From positions 156 to 64,155 of the forward strand of contig JACZWZ010000001.1 of NCBI GenBank assembly GCA_022571885.1: a DNA stretch of 64,000 nt, written 5' to 3'. Source of the DNA: Acidobacteriota bacterium (lineage in GTDB: Bacteria > Actinomycetota > Acidimicrobiia > Spongiisociales > UBA11373). Positions 12,643 through 62,765 of the stretch are shown here, one piece after another. How positions within the stretch are numbered: position 1 is the stretch's first letter; every line of letters begins with the position of its first letter. Below the pieces are notes generated by a model. It saw only the letters and a list, made by a program, of their open reading frames with translations, searched no databases and was not told the origin of the DNA. The translations under genes were made by a program, and so were the position numbers.

Positions 12643-14543
12643 GACCGCTCGGCGCCATCGCAGTCGTCTTCGTAGCACTGGCGATATCGATCCCGGCATT
12701 GGCCGAAGAAGGCCTGGTGATCGAGTCCGTCGACATCACCAACGCGCCCGAAATGTCGCTGGTCATCTCGATCCCTGCTGAGGTGGTGGCGACAGATCCG
12801 GTGGCGTCGGACTTTGCGGTCCTGGTAGAAGGCATCCGGGTCTCGGCCGACGTGTTTGCCCTGGTGCGGGACCCGATGGAAGTGGTGATCGTGATCGATA
12901 CCTCCGGGAGCATGGCGGGTGAGCCGATGCAGGCGGCGACTTCTGCCGCCCTCGGGTTCATCGATTTGCTCCCCGAATCAGCCCTGGTGTCATTGGTCAC
13001 CTTCGGCGACGACGCGGTGGTCCGTAACGCCATGGGGGCGACTCGATCCGAGGTCGCCGAGTCTCTCTCAACCCTGATTGCCGAAGGGGAAACCGCTCTC
13101 TACGACGCCACGGTCACCGGCGCGTTGCAATTCACCGATGCCGACGCCAGACACGTCTTGGTGGTCCTCTCTGATGGAGCAGACACGGTGAGCACCGCCG
13201 GCCTCGACCAGGCGATCGCGGCTGCCGCAGAAGCAGACGCCGAGGTGCGGGCAGTCGCCCTGCAGACTTCTGAGAGCGCCCACGACGCTCTGTCGGCCCT
13301 GACCTCCACCGGCTCGATCACCACCGCGGTCGATGCCGCCGACCTGGCGGCCGCGTACCAGATCGTGGCACTCGAACTGACGGGCCGATATCGACTCACC
13401 TTCCAGGCGGCGTCGACCGGCTCGGTCCAGATCGATGTCTTCGTCAACGGACCGACGCGGGTGTTGTCATCCTCCCAGGTGGTCGATCTCGCCAGCGGAG
13501 TCGTCAGTCGAGGAGGTTCACCACAGCCGATTCCGGCGGGTTTCGGCCAAAACCCGGCGGCAGCGGTCCCGGTCGTCAAGGCCGAGCCGACCGGCCTCAG
13601 CTCGAGCTGGACCCTGCCGGCCGGGGTCGCCCTGGTGTTCGTCGGTGCGTTGACCATGCTGTGGCTGACGTCAAAGGATGACGAAAACCCACTGGCGTTC
13701 GAGGCTCCGGTCGAAGTCGATCAATCGATCGAGCGAGCCGGTTTCATCCCGGCCGTCGGAAGAAGGGCGAGGGCGATCGGGGAGCGAATCGCCGGGCGTA
13801 ACGATGCCGGGGCCATGGACCGCGCCCTGGATCGCGCCGGAGTCGCCCTGCGTCCCGGAGAATTCGTCATTGTCTCGGCAACCGGGGTGGTCGTCGGCGT
13901 GACCGCCGGACTCGTCATGGGCGGCACCATCGGCGCGGTATTCCTGGGAGCAGCAGCCGCGGCAGCGCCCCGAACCATTCTGCGCACACTGGCCAATCGG
14001 CGTCGGCGCGCCTTCGCCAACCAACTCGAAGGCAGTTTGCAGACGATCGCCGGGAGCCTGCGTGCCGGCTACGGGTTGGTGCAAGCGATGTCGACCGTCG
14101 CCGAAGAGTCGCCGTCGCCGACCTCAGACGAGTTCAACCGGGTTGTGGTCGAGTCACGCCTGGGGCGATCGATCGAAGATTCGCTGGCCGCGATGGCCGA
14201 GCGCCTCGAAAACGAGGATCTCGGCTGGGTGGTCGAAGCCATCGAGATCCAGCACGAGGTGGGCGGCAACCTGGCCGAGGTTCTCGACACCGTGACCAAC
14301 ACCATCCGCGAGCGCAACCAGCTCCGGCGCCAGGTGCAGGCACTCAGCGCCGAAGGCAAGATCTCCGCCATCATCCTGGTGTCGCTGCCGCTGGTGATCG
14401 CCTTCTTCATCGCGATAATCAGCCCCGACTATCTCGCCGAACTGACCGATACCGGCGTGGGCCGGATCATGATTGGAGTGGCGGCAATACTCATGCTCGC
14501 CGGCGCCGCCTGGATCAAAAAGATCATCAGGGTGGAATTCTGA
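12639..14543 (+). CDS. tadB: fusion: signal peptide + secreted von Willebrand factor A (VWA) domain + C-terminal TadB (T2SS-F family) membrane domain
   Basis: [22 protein letters not shown] signal; [13 protein letters not shown] (DxSxS MIDAS) ...[11 protein letters not shown] features in residues about 80-250; TM; then [16 protein letters not shown]... typical TadB/GspF-like region with C-terminal TMs. Confidence 0.75.
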
Positions 14544-15451
14544 TGCTGGGCGTACCTGTCTACGTCGTGGCGGCGGCCGGGATGGTGGTGGCAAGCTTGC
14601 CGCTGCTGGCGTGGTCGGTCGGCGGAAACCGGAGCAAGGTTGCTCCGACAGGTTTCGTCGATGGGCCGATCGATGAGCGGCAGGTGTACTTGCGGGTGGG
14701 GCCGCTCGATCGGGTCATCGTTCCGGTGGCCCGTTATCTGGGCCGTAAGGTCCGCCGAATCACCCCCGTGGGTTGGATCGATTCGCTGGAGCGGCGGATT
14801 CGACTCGCCGGATCTCCCGACGCCTGGCCGGTGGAGCGGGCACTGGCACTCAAGATGGTTCTCGGGATCGTGGGCGCCCTGGGGACTTGGGCCGCGAGAG
14901 GCAACGCTTTTGGCCTCTCCGACCTCGGGCTGAGCGCTCTCGGAGGTCTGGTTGGATACTTGCTGATCGATCTGATCCTCTACTCCCGCGGCAAGGAGCG
15001 TCAGAAGAAGATCCTCAAATCGCTTCCCGACACACTCGATCAACTCACCATCAGCGTGGAAGCGGGACTCGGATTCGACGCCGCCCTGATGAGAGTCACC
15101 TCCACCGGGACCGGCCCTCTCGCCGAGGAGCTGACCCGAGTGCTGGCCGAGATCAAGGTCGGCGTCCAACGGACCGACGCCCTGAAACACCTGATCGAAC
15201 GCACCGACGTCTACGAGCTGCGCCACTTCATCCTGGCGTTGAACCAGGCGGAGCAGTACGGGCTTCCGGTGGCCCGAGTGCTGCGTATCCAGTCCGGAGA
15301 CCTTCGGATCAAGCGGCGTCAGCGGGCCGAAGAAGAGGCCATGAAGATCCCGGTCAAGATCGTGTTCCCCCTCGTTTTCTGCATCTTCCCGGCGCTATTC
15401 GTGGTCCTGCTGGGACCGGCCATGATCCGGGTCTCGCGGGCTCTGCTCTAG
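14543..15451 (+). CDS. tadC: TadC (T2SS-F family) inner-membrane platform protein
   Basis: Three TM segments with cytoplasmic LPDTLDQLTISVEAGLGFDAALMRV...QAEQYGLPVARVL GspF-like domain. Confidence 0.8.
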   Translation: MLGVPVYVVAAAGMVVASLPLLAWSVGGNRSKVAPTGFVDGPIDERQVYLRVGPLDRVIVPVARYLGRKVRRITPVGWIDSLERRIRLAGSPDAWPVERALALKMVLGIVGALGTWAARGNAFGLSDLGLSALGGLVGYLLIDLILYSRGKERQKKILKSLPDTLDQLTISVEAGLGFDAALMRVTSTGTGPLAEELTRVLAEIKVGVQRTDALKHLIERTDVYELRHFILALNQAEQYGLPVARVLRIQSGDLRIKRRQRAEEEAMKIPVKIVFPLVFCIFPALFVVLLGPAMIRVSRALL

Positions 15452-15456
15452 CTAGA

Positions 15457-15830
15457 GGAAGTCACCAGTCTCCAGTCTCCAGTCTCCAGTCTCCAGTCAG
15501 AATTCAGATTCGGAGGGAGGCCATCCTGCTGAGTGGCTGACCAAAGAACTCCAGTCCCCACTTGAGAAGTCCCCGGTTTCCGGTCCCCAGTCGCTAGTCA
15601 GAATTCAGATTCGGAGAGAGGCCCCTCCTGATGACTGGCGGCTTAGAGGCCGCGCGGATAGGCGGGATGCGACCGCCGGTGCCTCGTGAGCCCTTGTGGA
15701 ATATCGCCCTGCGTGTGAAACATCCGTCCATGTTTCACCCAACCGCTGAGTCTCTTAGTACTGAAGTCTTGCTGGAGACTGGAGACTGACGACTGACGAC
15801 TGACGACTGACGACTGACGACTCCTCTACG
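15457..15830. repeat. heptamer tandem arrays as inverted arms ((CAGTCTC)x4 ... (GGAGACT)x2(GACGACT)x5) bounding about 270 nt with two 28-nt direct repeats (gtcagaattcagattcggagRgaggcc) and a 9-bp perfect hairpin (gtgaaacat ccgtcc atgtttcac)
   Basis: Read directly in the convergent tadC / UPF0182 intergenic region. Confidence 0.7.
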
Positions 15831-18954: not shown

Positions 18955-19040
18955 TGCCGTCGAGTATCCAGTTCAGACTGGTTACTGGCTACTGGCTACT
19001 GGTTACTGGCTACTGGCTACTGGTTACTGGTTACTCTGCC
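18955..19040. repeat. (TACTGGY)x8 heptamer tandem array, preceded by two copies of gtcgagtatccRgt
   Basis: ggttactggctactggctactggttactggctactggctactggttactggttact read directly between the DivIVA-like stop and UPF0182 start. Confidence 0.8.
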
Positions 19041-21992: not shown

Positions 21993-22859
21993 ATGAGCCG
22001 TATAAGCCGCACACTCGAACTCGCCGGATCATCCTGGCGAGTCCTCAAAGCCGACAAGGAACTGGTGCTCCTTCCTCTTCTGTCACTGATCGCAACGGTT
22101 GCCGTGGCCGTTTCGTTCCTGTGGCCGATCGTCAGCAGCTGCACCGAAACCATCGGATCAAAGAACGCCTGTGAGCTCGGTGGCGTCGACTACGTGATCC
22201 TCGCAGTCGCCTATCTCACTCTCGCCTTCATCACGATCTTCTTCAATGCAGCCCTCGTCCACGCCGCCAATGAGCGAATGGATGGCGGAGATCCCACGGT
22301 CGGCAGCGCCATCAGGGGAGCGTTGGGCAAGATCCACCGAATCCTGCCGTGGGCGATCGTCTCGGCGACGGTTTCGGTGATCCTCCGCAGCCTCGAGCAG
22401 AGGGCCGGCCTGGTGGGACGTATCGTGATCGGGTTCATCGGGTTGGCCTGGTCGCTGGTCACCTTCCTCATCGTCCCGGTGCTGGTCATCGAAGACATCG
22501 GAGTATTCGACGCCGTAAAACGCTCGGGAGCGTTGTTCAAGCGCACCTGGGGAGAGAACATGGCAGCACAGGTCGGCTTCGGACTCCTCGGAATCCTGGC
22601 TGCATTGCCGGGAATCGCAATCATCGTTCTCGGCTTCAACGCAGGCGGACCGGCCGCCGTGACCGCGATCGCCATCGGAATGGCGTGGATTCTGGCGTCA
22701 CTTTTGGTGCTATCCGCTCTCAATGGGATCTTCCAAACGGCTCTCTACCGGCATGCCACCGGTGTGGGAACCGGGGCGTTCGATGGGAATTTGACGACGG
22801 CGTTTGCGACGAAGACGCGGCGCGGATTCGGATCGACCCCCCGAGGGTTCGGAGGATAG
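21993..22859 (+). CDS. hypothetical polytopic membrane protein
   Basis: Six or more hydrophobic segments; no catalytic motif recognised. Confidence 0.5.
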   Translation: MSRISRTLELAGSSWRVLKADKELVLLPLLSLIATVAVAVSFLWPIVSSCTETIGSKNACELGGVDYVILAVAYLTLAFITIFFNAALVHAANERMDGGDPTVGSAIRGALGKIHRILPWAIVSATVSVILRSLEQRAGLVGRIVIGFIGLAWSLVTFLIVPVLVIEDIGVFDAVKRSGALFKRTWGENMAAQVGFGLLGILAALPGIAIIVLGFNAGGPAAVTAIAIGMAWILASLLVLSALNGIFQTALYRHATGVGTGAFDGNLTTAFATKTRRGFGSTPRGFGG

Positions 22860-22860
22860 G

Positions 22861-22925
22861 GGTTAGGTGTTAGGGATTAGGCGTTAGGAAGAATTTCTAA
22901 GACCTAATACCCAATACCTAACGCC
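22861..22925. repeat. TTAGG-heptamer inverted-arm palindrome (ggttaggtgttagggattaggcgttagg aagaatttct aagacctaatacccaatacctaacgcc)
   Basis: Read directly between convergent genes (membrane protein + / bioY -). Confidence 0.8.
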
Positions 22926-33934: not shown

Positions 33935-34020
33935 TTCTGACTGGAGACTGGTGACTGGTGACTGAGGACTGGCGACCGGACTCCTTCGGGAGTCGGGCAT
34001 CGGGCATCGGGGTTACGCTG
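33935..34020. repeat. heptamer tandem repeats (GACTGGT/GGAGACT-type, then GGGCATC x2)
   Basis: ctgactggagactggtgactggtgactgaggactggcgacc...gggcatcgggcatcggg read directly. Confidence 0.7.
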
Positions 34021-34505: not shown

Positions 34506-34555
34506 CCATTTAGGTATTAGGTATTAGGCGTTAGGTATTAGGTATCTGGGCTTGG
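34505..34555. repeat. (TTAGGTA)x5 tandem array followed by a dispersed 30-nt motif (acccacggctcttcg...ctcatc) at 34577-34612
   Basis: ccatttaggtattaggtattaggcgttaggtattaggtatctggg read directly. Confidence 0.8.
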
Positions 34556-34734: not shown

Positions 34735-35964
34735 GTGGACATGATCACCGTGATCGCCCTTGCGGTCGCCGTCGTCTCGACCGGGCTCGCCCTTCTCTTC
34801 TTCAACAGGGCAAGAGGGCTGAGTCACGCTGTGGATGCCGCCCGACGACGCATCGGCGGCAACCCACCCAAGCGATCGTGGCACCGCGAGGCGGCTCTGG
34901 AGGAAGCGCTGCAGACGCTCGAACGCTCGACCTCCCATGCCCAAAGGGAGCGAGCGCAGCTGGCAGGAGCGCTACAAGCGGCTCGGCTCGGAATCATCAT
35001 CACCGACGACCACGGAATGGTGACCTTCGCCAATCAGCCCGCCGATCAGTACCTGGGGGCACAACAAGGCGAGGCCATCGCAGAAGCAAGGCTCAGGGAG
35101 GCCATCGAACAGGCGATTCTCAACCGAACCACGATCTCGACCGAGGTCGAATCAGGCGCGCCGATTGGACGCTCTGTCGAAATAGTGGTCGTGCCTCTCG
35201 ACTTCGGGGTGGAGAGCGTCGGTGCCGTCACCTACTTGGAGGACATCACCGAACGGCGTCGAATGAGTGAGACACGGCGCGATTTCATCGCCAACGTGGG
35301 TCACCAACTCACCACGCCGCTGTCTGCTCTGGCGGCGCTGTGCGAGACGGTTGCCGACAGTCTTGACGACGCTGAAGTGGCACGACGGCTGGCGTCCCGC
35401 CTCGGACAGGAATCAACTCGCCTGGGTGCAATGGTGGACAGCATCCTCCAGTTGAGCCAGGCCGAAGCCCAGAAGGCACGAACCCAAGCTGTTCAGGCCT
35501 CAGAGCTGACAGAATCTGCAGCCGACGAGATGGGCCGAGCCGTCACCGAACGCGGGGCTGAACTCATCGTGGAAGCGGCACCGCCCGGCGTCTGCATCGC
35601 CGGGGATGAACGACAGCTTCGCTCATTGCTTGTCGGTCTCATCGACAACGCCGCCAAGTTCTCGAACTTGCCAGAGGGAAGTCCGCCGTCCCGTATCTGG
35701 CTTCGGACCTCGGTCCAGGGCGAGTCGGTGGTCTTCACCGTGCAAGATGAGGGAATCGGAATAGCCAAGGATCAAACCGATCGCATCTTCGAGCGGTTCT
35801 ATCGGGTCGATCGTTCCGAGCCCGGCACCGGACTCGGCCTCAGCATCGCGCGCCACATAGCCCGCGACCACGGCGGTGACGTAACCGTGATCAGCAAGCC
35901 GCAGGAGGGATCGATCTTTACCGTGACACTGCCGCTGTGGCGGGAGGAAGGGGTTAGGCGTTAG
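34735..35964 (+). CDS. sensor histidine kinase (TM - PAS-like - HisKA - HATPase), no adjacent response regulator
   Basis: FIANVGHQLTTPLSAL H-box; NLPEGSPPSRIWL...QDEGIGI...GTGLGLSIARHIARDHGGDV N/G boxes. Confidence 0.8.
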   Translation: MDMITVIALAVAVVSTGLALLFFNRARGLSHAVDAARRRIGGNPPKRSWHREAALEEALQTLERSTSHAQRERAQLAGALQAARLGIIITDDHGMVTFANQPADQYLGAQQGEAIAEARLREAIEQAILNRTTISTEVESGAPIGRSVEIVVVPLDFGVESVGAVTYLEDITERRRMSETRRDFIANVGHQLTTPLSALAALCETVADSLDDAEVARRLASRLGQESTRLGAMVDSILQLSQAEAQKARTQAVQASELTESAADEMGRAVTERGAELIVEAAPPGVCIAGDERQLRSLLVGLIDNAAKFSNLPEGSPPSRIWLRTSVQGESVVFTVQDEGIGIAKDQTDRIFERFYRVDRSEPGTGLGLSIARHIARDHGGDVTVISKPQEGSIFTVTLPLWREEGVRR

Positions 35965-36020
35965 GCGTTAGGAAGACTCTGCCTAGTACCTAATCCCTAA
36001 TGCCTAATTCCTTCCTACCT
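35945..36020. repeat. TTAGG inverted-arm palindrome (gggttaggcgttaggcgttagg aagactctg cctagtacctaatccctaatgcctaattcc)
   Basis: Read directly between convergent genes; overlaps the last codons of the kinase. Confidence 0.8.
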
Positions 36021-38856: not shown

Positions 38857-38886
38857 CAATTCACAATTCGCAATTCGCAATTCGAC
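38857..38886. repeat. (CAATTCG/CAATTCA)x4 heptamer array
   Basis: caattcacaattcgcaattcgcaattcgac read directly. Confidence 0.8.
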
Positions 38887-39375: not shown

Positions 39376-39600
39376 TATGCGCGCGGAGCGCGCGTGCGTC
39401 AAATGCTTTTCGCATAACAGCTCACTACCGCGCGCGGCCTTATGAGTGGCAGGAGGGAACCTTGACAGTGCGCGCGGAGCGCGCGCACTGTTAGTCCTTA
39501 GCCTTTAGTCGTTAGTCCTTAGGAAAGAAAAGACGAAGACAGGAGACAGCCGACAGCCCCGCCTCTGACCTAATGACTAAGGACTAATGACTAACGCCTC
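39376..39600. promoter_or_regulatory. whiB upstream region with GC-rich palindromes (gcgcgcg gag cgcgcg at 39379; perfect cagtgcgcgcg gag cgcgcgcactg at 39466-39490) and TTAGTCC inverted-arm repeats (39491-39600)
   Basis: Read directly; between the whiB start and sdhB stop. Confidence 0.45.
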
Positions 39601-43059: not shown

Positions 43060-43286
43060 TCAGCATTCTCGCGCGTTGCAGAGCACAGAGCGAAGGCCGT
43101 AAGACCCATGAATTCGTTTCCCGTTCCTGACCTGATTTCGTCACACCTGATGCGACGCGCCGGCCGCCATCCGGACGAGCCTTCGTCGAGTCCCCCGATT
43201 CCCGAATGCATCCCGACCATCCGCAGAATTCGGGAAAGGGGAAACGGGAAACGAATTCAGCCCAATCAGCGAATACTCTTCCCCAG

Positions 43287-44165: not shown

Positions 44166-44650
44166 GGATTAGCAATACGCCAGTGCGTAGGCAGGTCCCG
44201 GAGTCGGAGGACCCCCCTCCAACGACCTACGGTCGTTGACTCCCCCTCAAGGGTGTCGGGTTGCGCGATAGGGCCGACGGTTCTGTTCTGAATACTCTCC
44301 CCTTTGGGGGGAGTCAGCGAGCGAAGCGAGCTGGTGGGGGGTACCTGGTCTTCGTCTCCGTCAGGCCAACACGTCTTGTATGTCGTAGTGGCCTTTCACC
44401 GGGTGGTTGCGCCAGGTTGGGTAGCCACTCGATCATGCGTCTTGTGGGTCAGTTCGCCGAGTCGGTGTGTGGTCAGATAGGCAGCGGGATTGCCGCGACT
44501 TGGTGAGTCCCCCCACCAATCGGCCTGCGGCCGATTGACTCCCCCCAGAGGGGAGAGTGATCCAACCAACCGTCGGGCACTAACCGCGACAGATCACCCT
44601 CAAGGGGGGAGTGGTTCCCTATTGCTAATCGCTAATTGCTAATTGCGGGA
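44155..44650. mobile_element. copy A of a repeated structured element of about 500 bp (MITE-like): outer GATTAG/GCAAT arms, 14-bp TIR-like ends (ccccctcaagggtg ... caccctcaaggggg, core 44242-44608), internal GC hairpins
   Basis: Aligns by eye at roughly 90-95% identity with 56745-57290; no conserved ORF between the copies. Confidence 0.7.
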
Positions 44651-44695
44651 GGCGGCGCAGCCGCCGACCTCTTGCGAACAAAGAGGTAGTCTCGG

Positions 44696-47659: not shown

Positions 47660-47725
47660 GCACCCAGTACCCAGTACCTCGGAGGCTCCTTCTACTGGTT
47701 ACTGGCTACTGGCTACTGGCTACCC
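47660..47725. repeat. (CCAGTAC)x2 ... (TACTGGY)x5 heptamer array, same family as 18955-19040
   Basis: cagtacccagtacc...ctactggttactggctactggctactggctaccc read directly between the mdh start and icd stop. Confidence 0.8.
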
Positions 47726-52204: not shown

Positions 52205-52310
52205 AGGGGTCAAGAGATCGTTTCCCGTTCCCAGTTCCCCGTTTCCCGAATCTCGGCGCGACCTGATTCGGGAAACGGGACACGGGAAGCGGGAAACGAT
52301 CAGTTGGCCG
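52205..52310. repeat. GTTTCCC/GGGAAAC heptamer inverted-arm palindrome with spacer
   Basis: tttcccgttcccagttccccgtttcccgaatctcggcgcgacctgattcgggaaacgggacacgggaagcgggaaac read directly; related GGGAAAC repeats at 43228-43260. Confidence 0.75.
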
Positions 52311-54534: not shown

Positions 54535-54589
54535 GGCGGGAAGTATACGGAGGGGTCCACCGGTGAATCTCAGTGGTGTTATTTTGAAA

Positions 54590-54665
54590 GGGAGTTAGGG
54601 CTAGGAGTTAGGAACCAGGAAGAGACCGTCTACCTAATACCTAATGCCTAATACCTAACTCCTAC
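54590..54665. repeat. TTAGG inverted-arm palindrome (gggagttagggctaggagttagg ... cctaatacctaatgcctaatacctaactcc)
   Basis: Read directly between the pcrA start and the cheA-like stop. Confidence 0.8.
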
Positions 54666-56744: not shown

Positions 56745-57290
56745 GTTAGCGATAAGTGGTAGCAATACGCAATGCGCCCAGCAGGCCACTTGCAGGCAAC
56801 GACCGCGTTGGAGTTCTCGGAGTCGGAGGGGCCCCTCCAATCGAGCTCCGCTCGATTGACTCCCCCTCGAGGGTGTCGGGTTGCGCGATAGGGCCGACGG
56901 TTCTGTTCTGAACACTCTCCCCTTTGGGGGGAGTCAGCGAGCGAAGCGAGCTGGTGGGGGGTACCCGGTCTTCGTCTCCGTCAGGCCAACACGTCGTGTA
57001 TGTCGTAATGGCCTTTCACCGGGTGGTCGCGCCAGGTTTGTGTAGCCACTCGAACATCCGTCTTGTGGGTCAGCTCGCCGAGCCGGTGTGCGTCCAATAG
57101 GCAGCGGGATTGCCGCGACTTGGTGAGTCCCCCCACCAATCGGCCTGCGGCCGATTGACTCCCCCCAGAGGGGAGAGTGATCCAACCAACCGTCGGGCAC
57201 CAACCGCGACAGATCACCCTCGAGGGGGGAGTGGTTCCTTATTGCTACTCGCTAATCGCCAATCGCGGAAGGCGCCGACGCATCTCTGAC
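56745..57290. mobile_element. copy B of the repeated structured element of about 500 bp (perfect 14-bp TIRs ccccctcgagggtg 56862-56875 / caccctcgaggggg 57215-57228), followed by (GGACTAA)x4 heptamers
   Basis: Same order of blocks as copy A; stem-loops differ by compensatory changes (A: aacgacc tac ggtcgtt; B: aatcgagc tcc gctcgatt). Confidence 0.7.
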
Positions 57291-57336
57291 CTGAGGACTA
57301 AGGACTAACGACTAAGGACTAACAACTGGCGAAGCC

Positions 57337-58881
57337 TCACTCCCACTCGATGGTGGCGGGCGGCTTCGAAGAGATGTCGTAGGCGACCCGGTTGATCCCT
57401 TCGACCTCGTTGATTATCCGTGACGAGATTCTCTCCAACAGATCGTGGGGCAACCGAGCCCAATCGGCCGTCATCGCGTCTTCGCTGGTGACGGCACGCA
57501 CGATGAGCGGGTAGGCGTAGGTGCGAATATCGCCCTGGACCCCGACCGTCTTGATTGCCGGCAGCACTCCGAATGCCTGCCAGATCTCCCGGTACAACCC
57601 GGCCCGCCGGATCTCTTCGAGGATGATGGTATCGGCGCGCCGTAGAATCTCGAGTCGCTCCCGAGTCACCTCTCCGATGATCCTCACAGCCAGACCGGGA
57701 CCTGGGAAGGGCTGCCGCCACACGATGTCGGGAGGCAGGCCGAGCTCCTCACCTATCGCACGTACCTCGTCCTTGAACAGATCGCGCAGCGGCTCCACCA
57801 GCTCGAAATCCATATCGTCGGGCAGTCCGCCGACGTTGTGATGACTCTTGATCTTGGCTGCATCCTTGGTCCCGGACTCGATGATGTCGGGATAGAGCGT
57901 CCCCTGCACCAAGTACTTGGCATCGTCGACATCGGCCGCGACATCCTCGAACACTCTGATAAAGGTTTCGCCGATGATCTTGCGCTTCTCCTCGGGGTCG
58001 GTCACACCCGTCAACGCGCTGAGAAACCGATCGGCGGCGCGGACGTGGATCAGGTCGATATCGAGCGTGGCACGAAAGGCCGCTTCCACCTGGTCTGCCT
58101 CACCCTGGCGCAGCAGGCCATGATCCACGAACACGCAGGTGAGCCTGTCTCCGATCGCTCGGTGAACCAGTGCCGCGGCAACGGCGGAATCGACGCCACC
58201 CGAGAGACCACAAATCACCCGACCCGCCGGGGCTGCCTCACGGATCCAACTCACCGCCTGCTCGATTATCCCGACGTGGGTCCACGTCGGTTTGGCCCCG
58301 CACACTTCATAGAGGAACCGTTGCAGCACCTCCTGGCCTCGCGGGGTGTGAGCCACCTCCGGGTGGAACTGCACGCCGCACATTTTGCGCTCGAGATCCT
58401 CCATCGCTGCCACCGGTGAAACCGCAGTCGATGCCGTCACCGTGAAACCCGGCGGAGCCTTCACGACCGCGTCGCGGTGGCTCATCCAGACCTCTTGATG
58501 ACCGGGCAGCTCGGCGAACAACACCGACTCGGGCGCGATCTCCAACTCGGTCCTTCCATACTCGGCTACCTCGACCCGCGCCACGTCACCGCCGAGGGCG
58601 CTCGCCAACACCTGATGGCCGTAACAGATGCCGAGAATCGGAACCCCCAAATCCAGGATCGCCGGATCGATCTCATAGGCGTCTTCGGCATACACCGATG
58701 CCGGGCCACCAGACAGGATGATCCCGACCGGCGACGCCGATCTCACCTGATCGGCCGTGACATCACGGGGCACGATCACCGAGTACACATGCGCCTGACG
58801 AACCCTGCGAGCGATCAGTTGGGCGTATTGCGCCCCGAAGTCGACGACGAGAACCCTGTCGAAGCCCTCGTCCATCGGCAT
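57337..58881 (-). CDS. guaA: GMP synthase (glutamine-hydrolysing)
   Basis: GATase (ILGICYGHQ), ATP-PPase SGGVDS motif, C-terminal dimerisation domain; 514 aa. Confidence 0.9.
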
Positions 58882-60038
58882 TAGCCCATGCCGATATGCT
58901 GGCTAATCTGGAGCGCTTTGCCTTCGGTCTTCAGCGCGGGCGCAACCATGACTTCGGCCTTCTGGAACGCCTTCAGATCGGCGTATCCGGTGGTCGCCAG
59001 CGAGACCGTCAACCCGCCGAACAGATTGCGCCGGCCGTCATTCTCATGCGCCGGGCCCCGAAGAATCTCTTCGAGCGATCCCAACTCCCCCACCTCCACC
59101 CGAGCGCCCCGCGGCAGGGTCGGATGGAAGGTGGCCATGCCCCAATGATGACCCCTACCCGGTGCCTCAGTGGCCGCCGCAATCGGAGACCCGAGCATGA
59201 CGGCGTCGGCTCCGCAGGCGATGGCCTTGGCGATGTCACCGCCGGTGCGCATTCCGCCGTCGGCGATCACATGCACGTAGCGTCCGCTCTCGTCGAGGTA
59301 CTGGATCCGGGCGCCGGCGGCGTCGGCGATGGCGGTGGCCTGTGGCACTCCGACCCCGAGGACACCGCGGGTGGTGCAGGCCGCCCCAGGACCCACGCCG
59401 ACAAGCACACCGACCGCACCGGTGCGCATCAAATGCAACGCTGTGGAATAGGAGGCACAGCCACCCACGATCACCGGTAGGTGGAACCCGGAGATGAATC
59501 TCTTGAGATCGAGAGGTTCGACTCGCGTCGACACGTGTTCGGCCGACACCACCGTCCCCTGGATCACCAGCATGTCGAGGCCCGCTTCGGCGGTGAGATC
59601 TGAGTACTTGGCGACGTGCTGGGGCGTGAGGCTGGCGGCAGTGGTGATTGCTGCCGACTTCATCTCCTCGATGCGAAGGCCGATCAGCTCCGGTTTGATC
59701 GGCTCGAGGTAGATCTCTTGCATCCGCCGCGTCGCCTTCTCCGCAGGCAGCGAGGCGATCTCCTCGAAATATGGGGTCGGATCCTGGTAGCGGGTCCACA
59801 GCCCTTCGAGGTTCAGGACGCCGATCCCACCAAGACGTCCGATCTCGATGGCAGTGGCAGGACTCACCGCCGAATCCATCGCAGAAGCGAGCAACGGGAG
59901 TTCCAGGTGATAGGCGTCGATCTCCCACGAGATGTCGACATCGTCGGGATCACGGGTACGCCGGCTGGGAACGATGGCGATGTCGTCGAGACCCCAGGCC
60001 CGGCGCCCGGTCTTACCGATCCCGATTTCGATGTCCAT
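58881..60038 (-). CDS. IMP dehydrogenase-family protein (GuaB3-like, no CBS pair)
   Basis: IMPDH TIM-barrel blocks (GIGVLNLEG..., [61 protein letters not shown]); 385 aa. Confidence 0.7.
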
Positions 60039-60100
60039 TTTTGTCCCGTGTGTGTGGTCGTGGGGAGAGTAGCCAGGCGAAGGATGGTGGTCGGGGAACA

Positions 60101-60551
60101 GGAGTTAGGTATTAGGAATTAGGCGTTAGGTGCCGGACCGCCAATGCTTGATCAGTGAACGCAACATCCTCTTGACCTCACCGATGTAACCAAGTGTGAC
60201 GTCGATCGGATCCTTGGTGTGACCCAGTCGGGCGGCAAGATCCAGCTGATATTCCAACTCGCTCGCCGATCCAGCCGCGATCGAAAGCAGCCGAGCAGCA
60301 TCCGGATCCGTGCTGCGTCCGGCCGCTTCTGCGATATTCGAAGCTACAGACACGGCAGCTCTCCTCATTTGAGCGACCAGCCCGAACCGTTCGTCAACGG
60401 GAAACTCGCCGGTGATCCGATAGATATCTAGGACCACCTCATCGGCCCGCTGCCACACCGTCAGTGACCGATAGTCGCGCATGACTCAACCGGTACACCG
60501 AAAGTCCAAGCGAAACAAGCCCCCTGCTAGTCCTACCTAATCCCTAATCCC
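60101..60551. mobile_element. TTAGG inverted-repeat cassette (left ggagttaggtattaggaattaggcgttagg; right ctagtcctacctaatccctaatccct) enclosing the four-helix-bundle gene
   Basis: Read directly; the cargo gene's TAA stop (60126-60128, minus strand) lies inside the left TTAGG unit; the right arm abuts the trpS stop. Confidence 0.6.
60126..60482 (-). CDS. four-helix-bundle protein (TIGR02436 / 23S rRNA intervening-sequence protein family, Avd-like fold)
   Basis: MRDYRSLTVWQRADEVVLDIYRITGEFPVDERFGLVAQMRRAAVSVASNIAEAAGR...ASELEYQLDLAARLGH matches the family consensus (KVWQKA...LxxQLRRAAxSIxxNIAEG...GSxxElEyhL). Confidence 0.85.
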   Translation of the reverse strand: MRDYRSLTVWQRADEVVLDIYRITGEFPVDERFGLVAQMRRAAVSVASNIAEAAGRSTDPDAARLLSIAAGSASELEYQLDLAARLGHTKDPIDVTLGYIGEVKRMLRSLIKHWRSGT

Positions 60552-60557
60552 TGAAGC

Positions 60558-61547
60558 TCAGCCTGCCAGCCCGACCCTCTTTCTGACCGCCTGCTGAAAC
60601 CCCTCTGCCCGCGTCCGGGCATCGAGAGCGCCTCGCTGCATCAGCCGGGCTACCTCGGCATCGTCCAGCTCCTTGTAGTTGCTCCGAAGCGGCGCCAATC
60701 CGGCGATCACAGCCTCGGCTACCGCTTCCTTGAAATTTCCGTATCCTCCACCGCCGAATTCGGCTTCGATCGACTCGACCGAAGCCCCGGTGAACAACGA
60801 CATGATCTCGATCAGATTCGATACGCCCGGCTTCTCCGCGCGGTCGTAGCGGACCTCGGTTTCCGAGTCGGTGACGGCGCCCTTGAGCCGCTGCCTGATG
60901 GTGTCGGGATCGTCGAGGATCAGGATTCGGCTGCTCTCGTCCGGCTCGAATTTCGACATCTTGGCGGTCGGGTCCTGCAGCGACATCACCCGGGCGCCCT
61001 TGTCGGGGATGATCGGTTCCGGCATCGGAAACTCATCGCCGAAGCGATGATTGAATCGCTCAACCAGGTCTCTGGTGAGTTCCAGATGCTGCTTCTGGTC
61101 CTCACCGACGGGAACCGCGTCGGCCCTGAACAGGAGAATGTCGGCGGCCATCAGCACCGGATACGAATACAGACCGAGGTTCGATCCCGCCCTATCCGCC
61201 TTGTCTTTGAACTGAGTCATGCGATTCAACTGCCCGGTACTGGTGATCGTCCCGAGGATCCATGCCAATTCGGTGTGTTGCGGTACCTGGCTCTGGTAGT
61301 AGAAGAGTGACCGCTCCGGATCGACACCGGCGGCGATGAGAACCTTGGCCGCCTCGAGACGATCTGTGTTGAATTCGACCGGGTCGAGCGGAACGGTGAT
61401 CGCGTGAAGGTCGACGACGCAGTAGATGCAGTCGTACTCCTCCTGGAGCTTCACCCAGTTCCGCAGGGCGCCCAGGTAATTGCCGATATGAAGGTTGCCC
61501 GAGGGCTGCAGCCCCGAGAAGACGGTCTTGCGTGTCATGGGAGCCAC
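60558..61547 (-). CDS. trpS: tryptophan--tRNA ligase
   Basis: FSGLQPSGNLHIGNYLGAL (HIGH), KMSKFEPDESS (KMSKS). Confidence 0.9.
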   Translation of the reverse strand: MAPMTRKTVFSGLQPSGNLHIGNYLGALRNWVKLQEEYDCIYCVVDLHAITVPLDPVEFNTDRLEAAKVLIAAGVDPERSLFYYQSQVPQHTELAWILGTITSTGQLNRMTQFKDKADRAGSNLGLYSYPVLMAADILLFRADAVPVGEDQKQHLELTRDLVERFNHRFGDEFPMPEPIIPDKGARVMSLQDPTAKMSKFEPDESSRILILDDPDTIRQRLKGAVTDSETEVRYDRAEKPGVSNLIEIMSLFTGASVESIEAEFGGGGYGNFKEAVAEAVIAGLAPLRSNYKELDDAEVARLMQRGALDARTRAEGFQQAVRKRVGLAG

Positions 61548-61549
61548 AA

Positions 61550-61665
61550 GTTAGTCACCAATCAACCAGTCACCAGTCAGACAGCAGATAGCAGACAACA
61601 GACAAGAGACAACAGACAGGTTCTCCAATCTGCAATCTGCAATCTGCACCCAGCACCCAGCACGC
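61550..61665. repeat. mixed heptamer tandem arrays ((CCAGTCA)x2, (CAGACAA)-like x5, (CAATCTG)x3, (CCCAGCA)x2)
   Basis: gtcaccagtcaccagtcagacagcagatagcagacaacagacaagagacaacagacagg...caatctgcaatctgcaatctgcacccagcacccagcac read directly. Confidence 0.8.
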
Positions 61666-61679
61666 TTACGCTCACGGCC

Positions 61680-62765
61680 ATGGACGAGACCCGCGCTGCT
61701 ATCCACGATCTGGGGCTCATCGGAATGGCATCGCAACATCTGACGAGCGAAATCGCCATGCACCTTCCCTTCGAGGAACTGGCGCCGTTCAAGGATGCCC
61801 TCAAAGTGTTCTTCTCTCATGCCAAGTGGACACCGGCCGACGAAGCCCGGCTATCCAAGCTCGTCACCGCCCACGTCTCAGAAGGAATGTGGGAGCACGA
61901 CCTGGGTGAGGGAATCACCCTCACCCACGGCATCGTCGACGGCACCTATCTCCTGCGGGTCGAAGGAGGGGCCAAGCCGGTCGAGTCCATCTTCGATCGC
62001 ATCTTCGAAGGACCGGTGACACCCGAATCGACCCCTCATCCGAGGAAAGTGAAGTTCCAGACCGGAGGCGAGCCCGCTCCCGGTGTGTGGCATCGACGCG
62101 GGGAGACGATAGATGACGAACGAGTCGCCTCGCTGTTCACCGATGAGGACATCACAGACGTGATGGTCGCCGGCGACTTCGTGACCGTCGGACTTGCCTC
62201 CCGCTCAACCTGGGAGGAGCGGCTCGACGCCGTGCTGGAGCAAGTCACCGAGCTGTTCTGGGACGGGCAGGGGTCACACCGCCCGGTGCGTACCCGAGAC
62301 GAACTGCTGGAAGAGGCAGGAAGGCTGAGCGTCAAGGAGGTGCGCGCCGAAGACCTTCATCTGATGGATCCCGACCGACCGGAACATCGGGCCCTCCTCA
62401 TCGCCGCGCTCGGAGCCGACGACCCTCGCCATCGGCGTGCCGCGGTAGCGACGCTGGCACTTGCAGGCGACGCCGAGGTGGCGATGGCAGCGGTGATAAC
62501 CGGCTATCGCGAAGAGTCACGGATCGTCAGACGGACGGCCATCGATGCCGCCGGCGACCTCGAGAGCGAGGCATACCGCCCACTGTTCGAGGAGGCAATC
62601 TTCGACGGTGATGCCTGGATCCGGTGGCGAGCCGTACGAGCAATCTCCGATATCGGCATCGGTCCCAGCGAGGAACAAGTCGTGCTGGCGACTGCCGACG
62701 AGGACTTTCAGGTGCGATTCGAAGCCAACGCCGTATGGCAGCGCCACGAGGCAAAAGACACCTGA
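61680..62765 (+). CDS. Nfu/NifU N-terminal-like scaffold domain + C-terminal HEAT (PBS-lyase type) repeats protein
   Basis: From MDETRAAIHDL: central KFQTGGEP...DITDVMVAGDFVTVGL resembles Nfu_N; C-terminus has repeated DPRHRRAAVATLALAGD / DAWIRWRAVRAISDIG HEAT-like units. The 92-aa upstream extension runs antisense over the trpS 5' end and the repeat array and is rejected. Confidence 0.5.
   Translation: MDETRAAIHDLGLIGMASQHLTSEIAMHLPFEELAPFKDALKVFFSHAKWTPADEARLSKLVTAHVSEGMWEHDLGEGITLTHGIVDGTYLLRVEGGAKPVESIFDRIFEGPVTPESTPHPRKVKFQTGGEPAPGVWHRRGETIDDERVASLFTDEDITDVMVAGDFVTVGLASRSTWEERLDAVLEQVTELFWDGQGSHRPVRTRDELLEEAGRLSVKEVRAEDLHLMDPDRPEHRALLIAALGADDPRHRRAAVATLALAGDAEVAMAAVITGYREESRIVRRTAIDAAGDLESEAYRPLFEEAIFDGDAWIRWRAVRAISDIGIGPSEEQVVLATADEDFQVRFEANAVWQRHEAKDT

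Follow-up and report, generated by a model that had tools for sequence, protein, structure and literature searches.

A candidate intervening-sequence-type hairpin cassette carrying an S23p-family gene between trpS and guaB3, outside rRNA

In this study, we analyzed a 64,000-nt stretch of an Acidimicrobiia genome (contig JACZWZ010000001.1 of assembly GCA_022571885.1; hereafter the window) and found that a 118-aa gene of the PF05635/TIGR02436 family, also called S23p, lies within inverted arrays of 7-nt units (heptads) in the spacer between trpS and guaB3. We consider it fairly likely that this element is a hairpin cassette bearing an open reading frame (ORF), of the type known from rRNA intervening sequences (IVSs), located outside rRNA. 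Comparison with close relatives indicated that the gene is exchanged together with its arms and its orientation, as a single block, at a hotspot beside guaB3, and the gene-plus-arms design was also found in other genomes. What is new here is the IVS-type cassette outside rRNA as a general unit of gene and heptad arms; the protein family, the rRNA IVSs, and the heptamer repeats were already known.

A first-pass annotation of the window had placed a 118-aa TIGR02436-family gene within TTAGG inverted repeats between trpS and a guaB3-like gene, and profile scores, sequence, and predicted fold agreed with this placement. The protein matched PF05635 (23S_rRNA_IVP) with an E value of 8.9e-31 and 106.7 bits (cutoff 33.8) over residues 6-108 of 118, and TIGR02436 with 108.2 bits (cutoff 24); both are full-length matches above the curated cutoffs for family membership. 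The nearest solved structure was 2gsc (XCC0516, named after a Xanthomonas campestris locus; E 1.6e-24, 5 chains), a pentameric four-helix bundle, and a second match was 2rld (E 2e-4). As judged from sequence similarity, the 118-aa protein is homologous to a solved four-helix-bundle homopentamer, and a pentameric toroid of an S23p-type protein has been described (PMC4990558). Between the gene and its orthologue at locus L090, 28 synonymous and 2 non-synonymous codon differences were counted, compared with 71 and 17 in trpS, and the two proteins were 98.3% identical. These results indicate that the protein is conserved by purifying selection. Identical copies of the gene were present on metagenome scaffolds. 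On the - strand the gene order is trpS, the 118-aa ORF, GuaB3, and guaA, and the G+C content of the window is 62.7%. The window was assigned to Acidimicrobiia because NCBI MAGs of that class carry GuaB3 proteins with 96% identity to its own. PADLOC gave no defence-system match.

The arms of the cassette were defined from sequence, period-7 runs, and RNA fold pairing. The 5' arm begins 5 nt past the trpS stop codon, and on the + strand it consists of two CCTAANN units and a degenerate CCTAC/CTAGT (60526-60552). The 3' arm consists of four TTAGGNN units on the + strand (60105-60130). The innermost of these, 60126-60130, contains the reverse complement of the TAA stop codon of the gene (60126-60128), as the first-pass annotation had stated. 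The TTAGGNNTTAGG pattern occurred 18 times in the window, compared with 0.00 expected from 100 dinucleotide shuffles. When the 476-nt RNA was folded, the 5' and 3' arms paired with each other in both the minimum free energy and the centroid structures (dG -195.9 kcal/mol, z -3.0), and the predicted arm pairing spanned about 400 nt.

The spacer between the 5' arm and the ATG may hold a promoter or leader of the cassette's own. Orthologues in inverted orientation would have to be transcribed from within their cassette. Consensus scans around the cassette gave no sigma-70 promoter and no intrinsic terminator. On the host side of the guaB3 junction, a GCTACTCTCC motif was conserved in an alignment of the window with L198, L090, and L172 and was also present in L084 and L173. 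It resembles a TANNNT -10 box, which suggests that it is guaB3's own promoter, retained outside the cassette, or a leader element.

We investigated the history of the guaB3 site in relatives. A TrpS scan of genome contigs gave only relatives of about 50% identity, and the orthologous loci were reached by exact-protein look-ups. The hosts of L198 and L199 are 93.3% (TrpS), 95.8% (GuaB3), and 92.6% (GuaA) identical to the window. The blastn homology to these two loci covered 60558-62750 and 57277-60072, ending at the trpS stop and resuming about 34 nt before the guaB3 start, and 60073-60557 had no counterpart. This block is replaced in L198/L199 by 550 nt holding a different cassette, in which the protein is 54.5% identical, the orientation is opposite, and the arms are TCAGAYN/GTCTGAT. 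L090, with a TrpS 94.8% identical to that of the window, was colinear through the same block at 89% nucleotide identity. Vertical inheritance with fast protein evolution was ruled out for the window and L198 by L090, which has a similar host divergence and 98% identity of the cassette protein; fast drift cannot explain the difference because the protein is conserved by selection. The cassette proteins of L198 and L204 were 79.5% identical, with the same arm type and both inverted, and the L198 protein also grouped with that on contig P0162. The comparison and this grouping therefore point to two deep cassette classes at one hotspot, which do not follow the host tree. The cassette gene was missing in L200/L201 and L202/L203. 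These results indicate that the cassette turns over as a unit, by replacement, inversion, and loss.

Across the clade, TrpS was 71-95% and GuaB3 84-89% identical, whereas the identity of the cassette protein was only 58-75%. The gene had the same orientation as guaB3 in the window, L090, L091, L172, and L179, and was inverted in L084-L089 and L173-L178. The arms were TTAGG in the window, L090, and L084, TCAGG in L091, GGCAG in L172 and L173, CTAGG in L179, and TCAGA in L198, and a change at this site was always mirrored on both arms. Contigs with identical proteins differed in the number of arm units (CCCTAAT x3 or x4; GGCAGAT x5-7), so that the arms behave like microsatellites. The first-pass annotation had described a TTAGG cassette with the gene inserted between trpS and guaB3. 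TTAGG as the signature does not fit arms that vary by lineage at the orthologous site, and a recent insertion does not fit a site upstream of guaB3 that is occupied across the Acidimicrobiia clade, down to a TrpS identity of 71%. The comparison of the trpS-guaB3 region that it had called for gave a different cassette in L198/L199 and no cassette in L200-L203, at this generally occupied site. Its small mobile cassette stood in part: gene and arms form one block relative to L198/L199, with no transposition to a new site and no mobility enzyme identified.

We next consider the gene-plus-arms design in other genomes. Homologues were taken from a metagenome scan (80 loci, 41-57% identity), plasmids, and viral contigs, about 100 loci in total. 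Arrays of period 7 or 8 with a score of at least 10 were counted in the flanks of the 76 metagenome homologues with both flanks, and 109 other genes on the same contigs served as controls. An array was present upstream in 42 homologues and downstream in 54, with both flanks occupied in 36, whereas the corresponding numbers for the control genes were 8, 13, and 1 (Fisher p 6e-16). Periods 4-6 and 9-12 were essentially absent around the homologues. The arms were 7-nt, sometimes 8-nt, arrays (GTGCCTGA is an 8-mer example), and the heptad varied from element to element (AGGGACT, GTGAGTG, AGCTGTC, CGAATCT). Within each element, the upstream arm was the reverse complement of the downstream arm, and in 52 of 77 loci the arm complementarity exceeded the 99th percentile of mismatched locus pairs. 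The 5' arm was G-rich whichever strand was read (G 36%, C 13%). Heptad arrays were present on both sides in 8 of 8 plasmid loci from cyanobacteria and proteobacteria, inverted in most, and in most of the 10 viral-contig loci. What defines these elements is two tandem arrays of 7-8-nt units in inverted orientation, not TTAGG.

The family was found in several other contexts, namely a EutN operon, toxin-secretion genes, viral contigs, and helix 45 of 23S rRNA, and Nostocales carry PF05635 genes. The rRNA case, L184, is a four-helix-bundle ORF inside 23S rRNA helix 45 on plasmid AZO_p2 of Azospirillum lipoferum 4B (NC_016586.1, about 14401-14745), a bona fide rRNA IVS with inverted GAGGACR heptad arms. 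This ORF is unannotated, and the PLSDB gene table shows no feature there. In L180 (Pseudanabaena), L182 (Anabaena sp. 90), and L187 (Picosynechococcus), four-helix-bundle cassettes with heptad arrays lie within CRISPR-cas operons, at the cas6-cas4 junction (type I-D) and the cas10-cmr3 junction (type III-B). On an unrelated metagenome contig (L138, 3940-5170), a EutN/CcmL operon contains, in spacers next to one another, a cassette whose arms are of the GAGTTAGGA type and two empty heptad hairpins. One of these hairpins has TTAGGAG units, the same heptad type as the cassette arms, and the other has TCCGAAA/TTCGGAT.

ORF-containing 23S rRNA IVSs are known in Coxiella burnetii, Leptospira, and Brucella, and they are excised by RNase III. 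The window cassette resembles them in its PF05635 ORF of about 120 aa within terminal inverted repeats, which form a long enclosing stem in the predicted fold. It also has tandem heptamers in the terminal region, an informal IVS trait seen in Coxiella (GACAGAT, in strain-variable number) and in Azospirillum (GAGGACR, L184), and a sporadic distribution suggesting horizontal transfer. In contrast to rRNA IVSs, which are defined by their place in rRNA, it lies between trpS and guaB3 and not in 23S helix 9, 25, or 45; Rfam gave no rRNA in the window and no match in the cassette region. The window protein is also under clear purifying selection, whereas the Coxiella ORF has been described as decaying. 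In the Coxiella 23S IVS, 3-4 tandem GACAGAT heptamers precede the S23p ORF, the terminal stem is 28 bp long, and RNase III cleavage falls inside this stem, where the first repeat begins (PMC4990558). Given the gene and heptad-arm features that it shares with L184 and Coxiella, the window element is built like an ORF-bearing rRNA IVS but is located in an operon spacer.

By analogy with rRNA IVSs, the arms of a transcript crossing the cassette would fold into a long double-stranded stem, and the host RNase III would cut this stem, releasing the cassette RNA and leaving the flanking RNAs intact. The cassette is thus probably cut out of transcripts by RNase III, and such release would explain its tolerance both within rRNA helices and in the spacers of operons. 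The arms may be kept matched by selection for pairing, by template switching between arms, or by both. Recombination in the arms would invert the cargo, and cassettes would be swapped by recombination in either arms or flanks. Hairpins consisting of arms only may be cargo-less derivatives or relatives of the cassette, analogous to ORF-less rRNA IVSs.

Such arms-only hairpins occur in the window itself. The first-pass annotation had noted three empty TTAGG palindromes, which are real (Table 1), and had regarded them as cargo-less relatives of the cassette. The hairpin between CheA and UvrD corresponds to a clean 66-nt indel relative to L198/L199, bordered on one side by GAGTAGGA, within which the CheA stop lies, and on the other by CTCC; L198/L199 have just AAGA in its place. 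In the more distant L087, the same gap holds an intact four-helix-bundle gene with GATGAGT/ACTCARA arms. The gap is therefore found in three states, absent (L198/L199), arms alone (window), and filled (L087), and this supports the empty hairpins belonging with the cassette. The comparison also indicates that gain or loss of arms-only hairpins takes place in discrete units. No decayed four-helix-bundle remnant was found below E = 1 in the empty hairpins or the rest of the window, and neither tblastn nor a six-frame profile search of the window gave a further four-helix-bundle gene or a remnant of one. When window 54580-54659 was aligned with L198 8895-8910, the hairpin was seen to replace AAGA between GGA and CTCC, the loop of a tiny potential hairpin; this single case recalls rRNA IVSs that substitute tetraloops. 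Like the cassette arm, which provides the stop codon of the four-helix-bundle gene, the empty-hairpin arms overlap or provide stop codons of convergent genes on either side.

Table 1. Positions of the cassette, its flanking genes, and other heptad elements in the window
Feature	Position	Strand	Basis or remark
Whole cassette block (arms, spacer, gene)	60073..60557	-	Bounded by blastn vs L198/L199
5' arm (gene strand), AGGGATT AGGGATT AGGTAGG ACTAG	60526..60552	-	Sequence, period-7 run, RNA fold pairing
Spacer, 5' arm to ATG	60483..60525	-	About 45 nt; possible promoter/leader
Four-helix-bundle gene	60126..60482	-	118 aa, ATG start; PF05635/TIGR02436, S23p family
3' arm (gene strand), CCTAACG CCTAATT CCTAATA CCTAACT CC	60101..60130	-	Sequence, RNA fold pairing
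GCTACTCTCC motif	60063..60074	-	Just outside cassette, 35-45 nt upstream of guaB3 start; host side of junction
trpS	60558..61547	-	TIGR00233, 338 bits
GuaB3 gene	58881..60038	-	TIGR01304, 558 bits
Empty TTAGG/CCTAA hairpin	22857..22921	.	Between convergent genes; arms overlap both stops (22857-22859, 22904-22906)
Empty TTAGG/CCTAA hairpin	35949..36012	.	Between convergent genes; TAG stop of upstream gene (35962-35964) in TTAGG unit
Empty TTAGG/CCTAA hairpin	54595..54658	.	Between CheA and UvrD
Lone TTAGGNN array, 5 units	34510..34545	+	Partner arm absent nearby
Period-7 array sites (examples)	15460-15822, 18977-19035, 33939-34011, 38857-38884, 39491-39594		
Period-7 array sites (further examples)	43232-43253, 47662-47723, 52219-52295, 57244-57322, 61565-61663		

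Several observations weigh against an IVS-type cassette. The RNase III cleavage is proposed by analogy with rRNA IVSs. Among the arm mismatches, 84 were GT+TG vs 89 AC+CA, with no strand-specific G:U excess; RNA selection on one strand is thus not demonstrated, and DNA-level homogenization could explain the matching arms. A few elements (L180 and L116) have direct, not inverted, arrays, which in L180 are AAAGCTA and AAAGCCA. Neither the cassette nor its surroundings showed a transposase, integrase, or other recombinase, and its junctions had no visible target-site duplication. The kinship proposed for the empty palindromes is backed by the 66-nt indel and the filled gap of L087, but the CheA-UvrD arms differ (TTAGG in the window vs GATGAGT in L087), so that they do not establish direct descent between the two. 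Heptad arrays, most of them at gene 3' ends, occupy about 14 of the 33 intergenic gaps in the window, so that finding one next to a given gene is not unusual here. Finally, every placed close homologue (64-98% identical) was directly upstream of guaB3, with none of the cassette lineage at any other locus among them. With all placed copies at this site, the swaps could be ordinary homologous recombination through the flanking genes.

This last point suggests the most serious alternative, in which the gene is a hypervariable resident of the host with two or more deep allelic classes, exchanged among Acidimicrobiia by homologous recombination via trpS/guaB3, and the arms are local regulatory or processing hairpins with no mobility of their own. 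The close homologues of both cassette classes all sit at the guaB3-adjacent site, and the two deep classes, A and B, occur in hosts that are 93-96% identical, as at immunity or self-recognition loci. The strong purifying selection on the protein and the lack of a mobility gene at the locus also fit a resident gene. However, the family is scattered in unrelated contexts across phyla, implying movement on longer timescales. In addition, the breaks in homology to L198 coincide with the outer arm edges, to within 5 nt toward trpS and about 30 nt toward guaB3, and arms-only hairpins come and go. We therefore regard a resident gene as possible but somewhat unlikely.

The abundance of arrays raises the question of coincidence, in which the genome is saturated with heptad hairpins acting as terminators or mRNA-stability elements, and the gene merely lies between two of them or was inserted in the loop of one. 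In the window, 31 tandem arrays had period 7, compared with 1-8 for each of periods 5, 6, and 8-11. The array density was 25 per 64 kb in the window, 20 per 78 kb in related Acidimicrobiia contigs, and 15 per 891 kb in 80 unrelated genome loci, so that the window had about 23 times the density of the unrelated loci. Many of the window arrays are hairpins with their own heptad (AGTCTCC/GGAGACT, ACCCAGT/ACTGGYT, CGTTTCC/CGGGAAA, TTAGTCC/GGACTAA), and TTAGG is one among many heptads. Xanthomonas and Nostoc likewise have hundreds of such repeats, many of them in convergent pairs (PMC4692102). Nevertheless, coincidence appears quite improbable, as the enrichment of arrays on both sides of the four-helix-bundle gene over neighboring genes (36/76 vs 1/109) was obtained in unrelated organisms, each arm specifically matches its partner, replacement affects arms, gene, and orientation jointly, and the arms accompany the ORF into rRNA in L184.

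The first-pass annotation also linked the gene to Avd, the accessory protein of diversity-generating retroelements. An orphan Avd, with its reverse transcriptase and its template and variable repeats (TR/VR) elsewhere or lost, is highly improbable: the protein shares a related four-helix-bundle fold and has weak matches to PF22296 (24.2 bits), NF033474 (23.9 bits), and PHROG 3206 (E 4.7e-10), but the curated Avd models score far below their cutoffs (40 bits for PF22296 and 80 for NF033474) whereas PF05635 and TIGR02436 score far above theirs, no TR/VR is nearby, the flanking architecture is different, and the locus architecture is conserved across the clade without a reverse transcriptase. The absence of a reverse transcriptase with the gene, which the same annotation had noted, held for the called neighbors within about 8 kb, all of which are housekeeping genes; no reverse transcriptase scan covered the remainder of the 64-kb window. 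The Pfam neighbors in L001, L087, and L198 were NicO, DUF554, HEAT, TrpS, IMPDH, GMP synthase, CheA, and UvrD, with no reverse transcriptase.

The cassette was also compared with known intergenic repeats. The short tandemly repeated repetitive (STRR) sequences of cyanobacteria belong to the intergenic heptamer simple-sequence repeats. The elements described here resemble such repeats as intergenic 7-nt arrays near gene ends, with many convergent inverted pairs in which the G-rich arm comes first and with lengths that vary between relatives; the empty hairpins and many arrays of the window fit this description. They differ from the published repeats in that the arrays are here the arms of a gene-bearing unit. 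In Xanthomonas, 186 GGGAATC arrays have been reported, of which 70 cases are convergent inverted pairs near the upstream gene, and Nostoc has intergenic GGGGAYT heptamer repeats (Rehm et al. 2015, PMC4692102). TAACTGA repeats have also been reported (MacGregor 2015, PMC4679880). In the literature searched, no link was found between S23p or four-helix-bundle genes and heptamer repeats outside rRNA, or between an IVS or cassette and such repeats, although reports may exist.

Repetitive extragenic palindromic (REP) sequences, bacterial interspersed mosaic elements (BIMEs), and miniature inverted-repeat transposable elements (MITEs) are similar in being short palindromic intergenic elements at gene ends, present or absent between strains, and can likewise be read as cargo-less relatives of a gene-bearing form. 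Unlike these, the present elements have arms of element-specific tandem heptads and not a conserved consensus, and they have no REP-associated tyrosine transposase (RAYT) or other transposase and no target-site duplication. Arm sequence was not conserved between elements, and no near-identical copies at several loci were found for the window cassette and its close homologues, in contrast to transposons and MITEs.

Other elements with heptad-like ends were observed in the window. A repeat of about 470 nt occurs twice, at 44185-44657 and 56805-57277, with 92% identity. Inverted repeats of about 75 nt lie within it, and its ends, GATTAGCAATA ... TATTGCTAATCGCTAAT, are heptad-like. The two copies differ by frameshifting indels, which speaks against a coding function; the second one is missing from the orthologous guaA-CheA gap of L199, and Rfam gave no match to the repeat. 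The repeat may represent a MITE or another type of cargo within an element with heptad ends. At 15460-15822, (AGTCTCC)x5 and (GGAGACT/GACGACT)x7 arms lie 273 nt apart with the C-rich arm first, a polarity opposite to that of the four-helix-bundle cassettes. Between these arms, a motif of about 45 nt (GTCAGAATTCAGATTCGGAGRGAGGCC...) is present twice, and no convincing ORF was found in this element. In the spacer between the divergent trpS and HEAT-repeat genes (61550-61670), heptad runs of CCAGTCA, CAGACAN, CAATCTG, and CACCCAG stand back to back. We also considered whether heptads serve to provide stop codons in all three frames at cassette borders. About 40% of arrays closed all frames, compared with 18-38% with permuted units. 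This is a weak effect, secondary at best, even though the stop codon of the cargo or of a neighbor is often supplied by an arm.

A broader proposal is unlikely to hold, though it is conceivable. Four-helix-bundle genes with inverted heptad arms would be very widespread, previously unrecognized selfish cassettes excisable by RNase III, and the rRNA IVSs would be the special case of those that landed in rRNA. Arms-only derivatives would account for the enigmatic intergenic heptamers (STRR, GGGAATC, TAACTGA), and the pentamer would recognize the periodic hairpin and promote the spread, maintenance, or homogenization of the arms.

To our knowledge, the very large PF05635/TIGR02436 family has no known function. 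The origin of rRNA intervening sequences has been a standing question since about 1990, and over-represented intergenic heptamer repeats have been repeatedly described in Xanthomonas, cyanobacteria, Beggiatoaceae, and others, with no mechanism. In a single-sequence search, the family comprised 18,497 clusters at 50% identity, and a link between its genes and heptads could therefore be broadly useful. For annotation, cassettes inside operons, cas operons included, may fragment polycistronic transcripts. If the unit of gene and heptad arms is general, the function of the S23p family, the origin of rRNA IVSs, and the intergenic heptamer repeats would become one testable problem.

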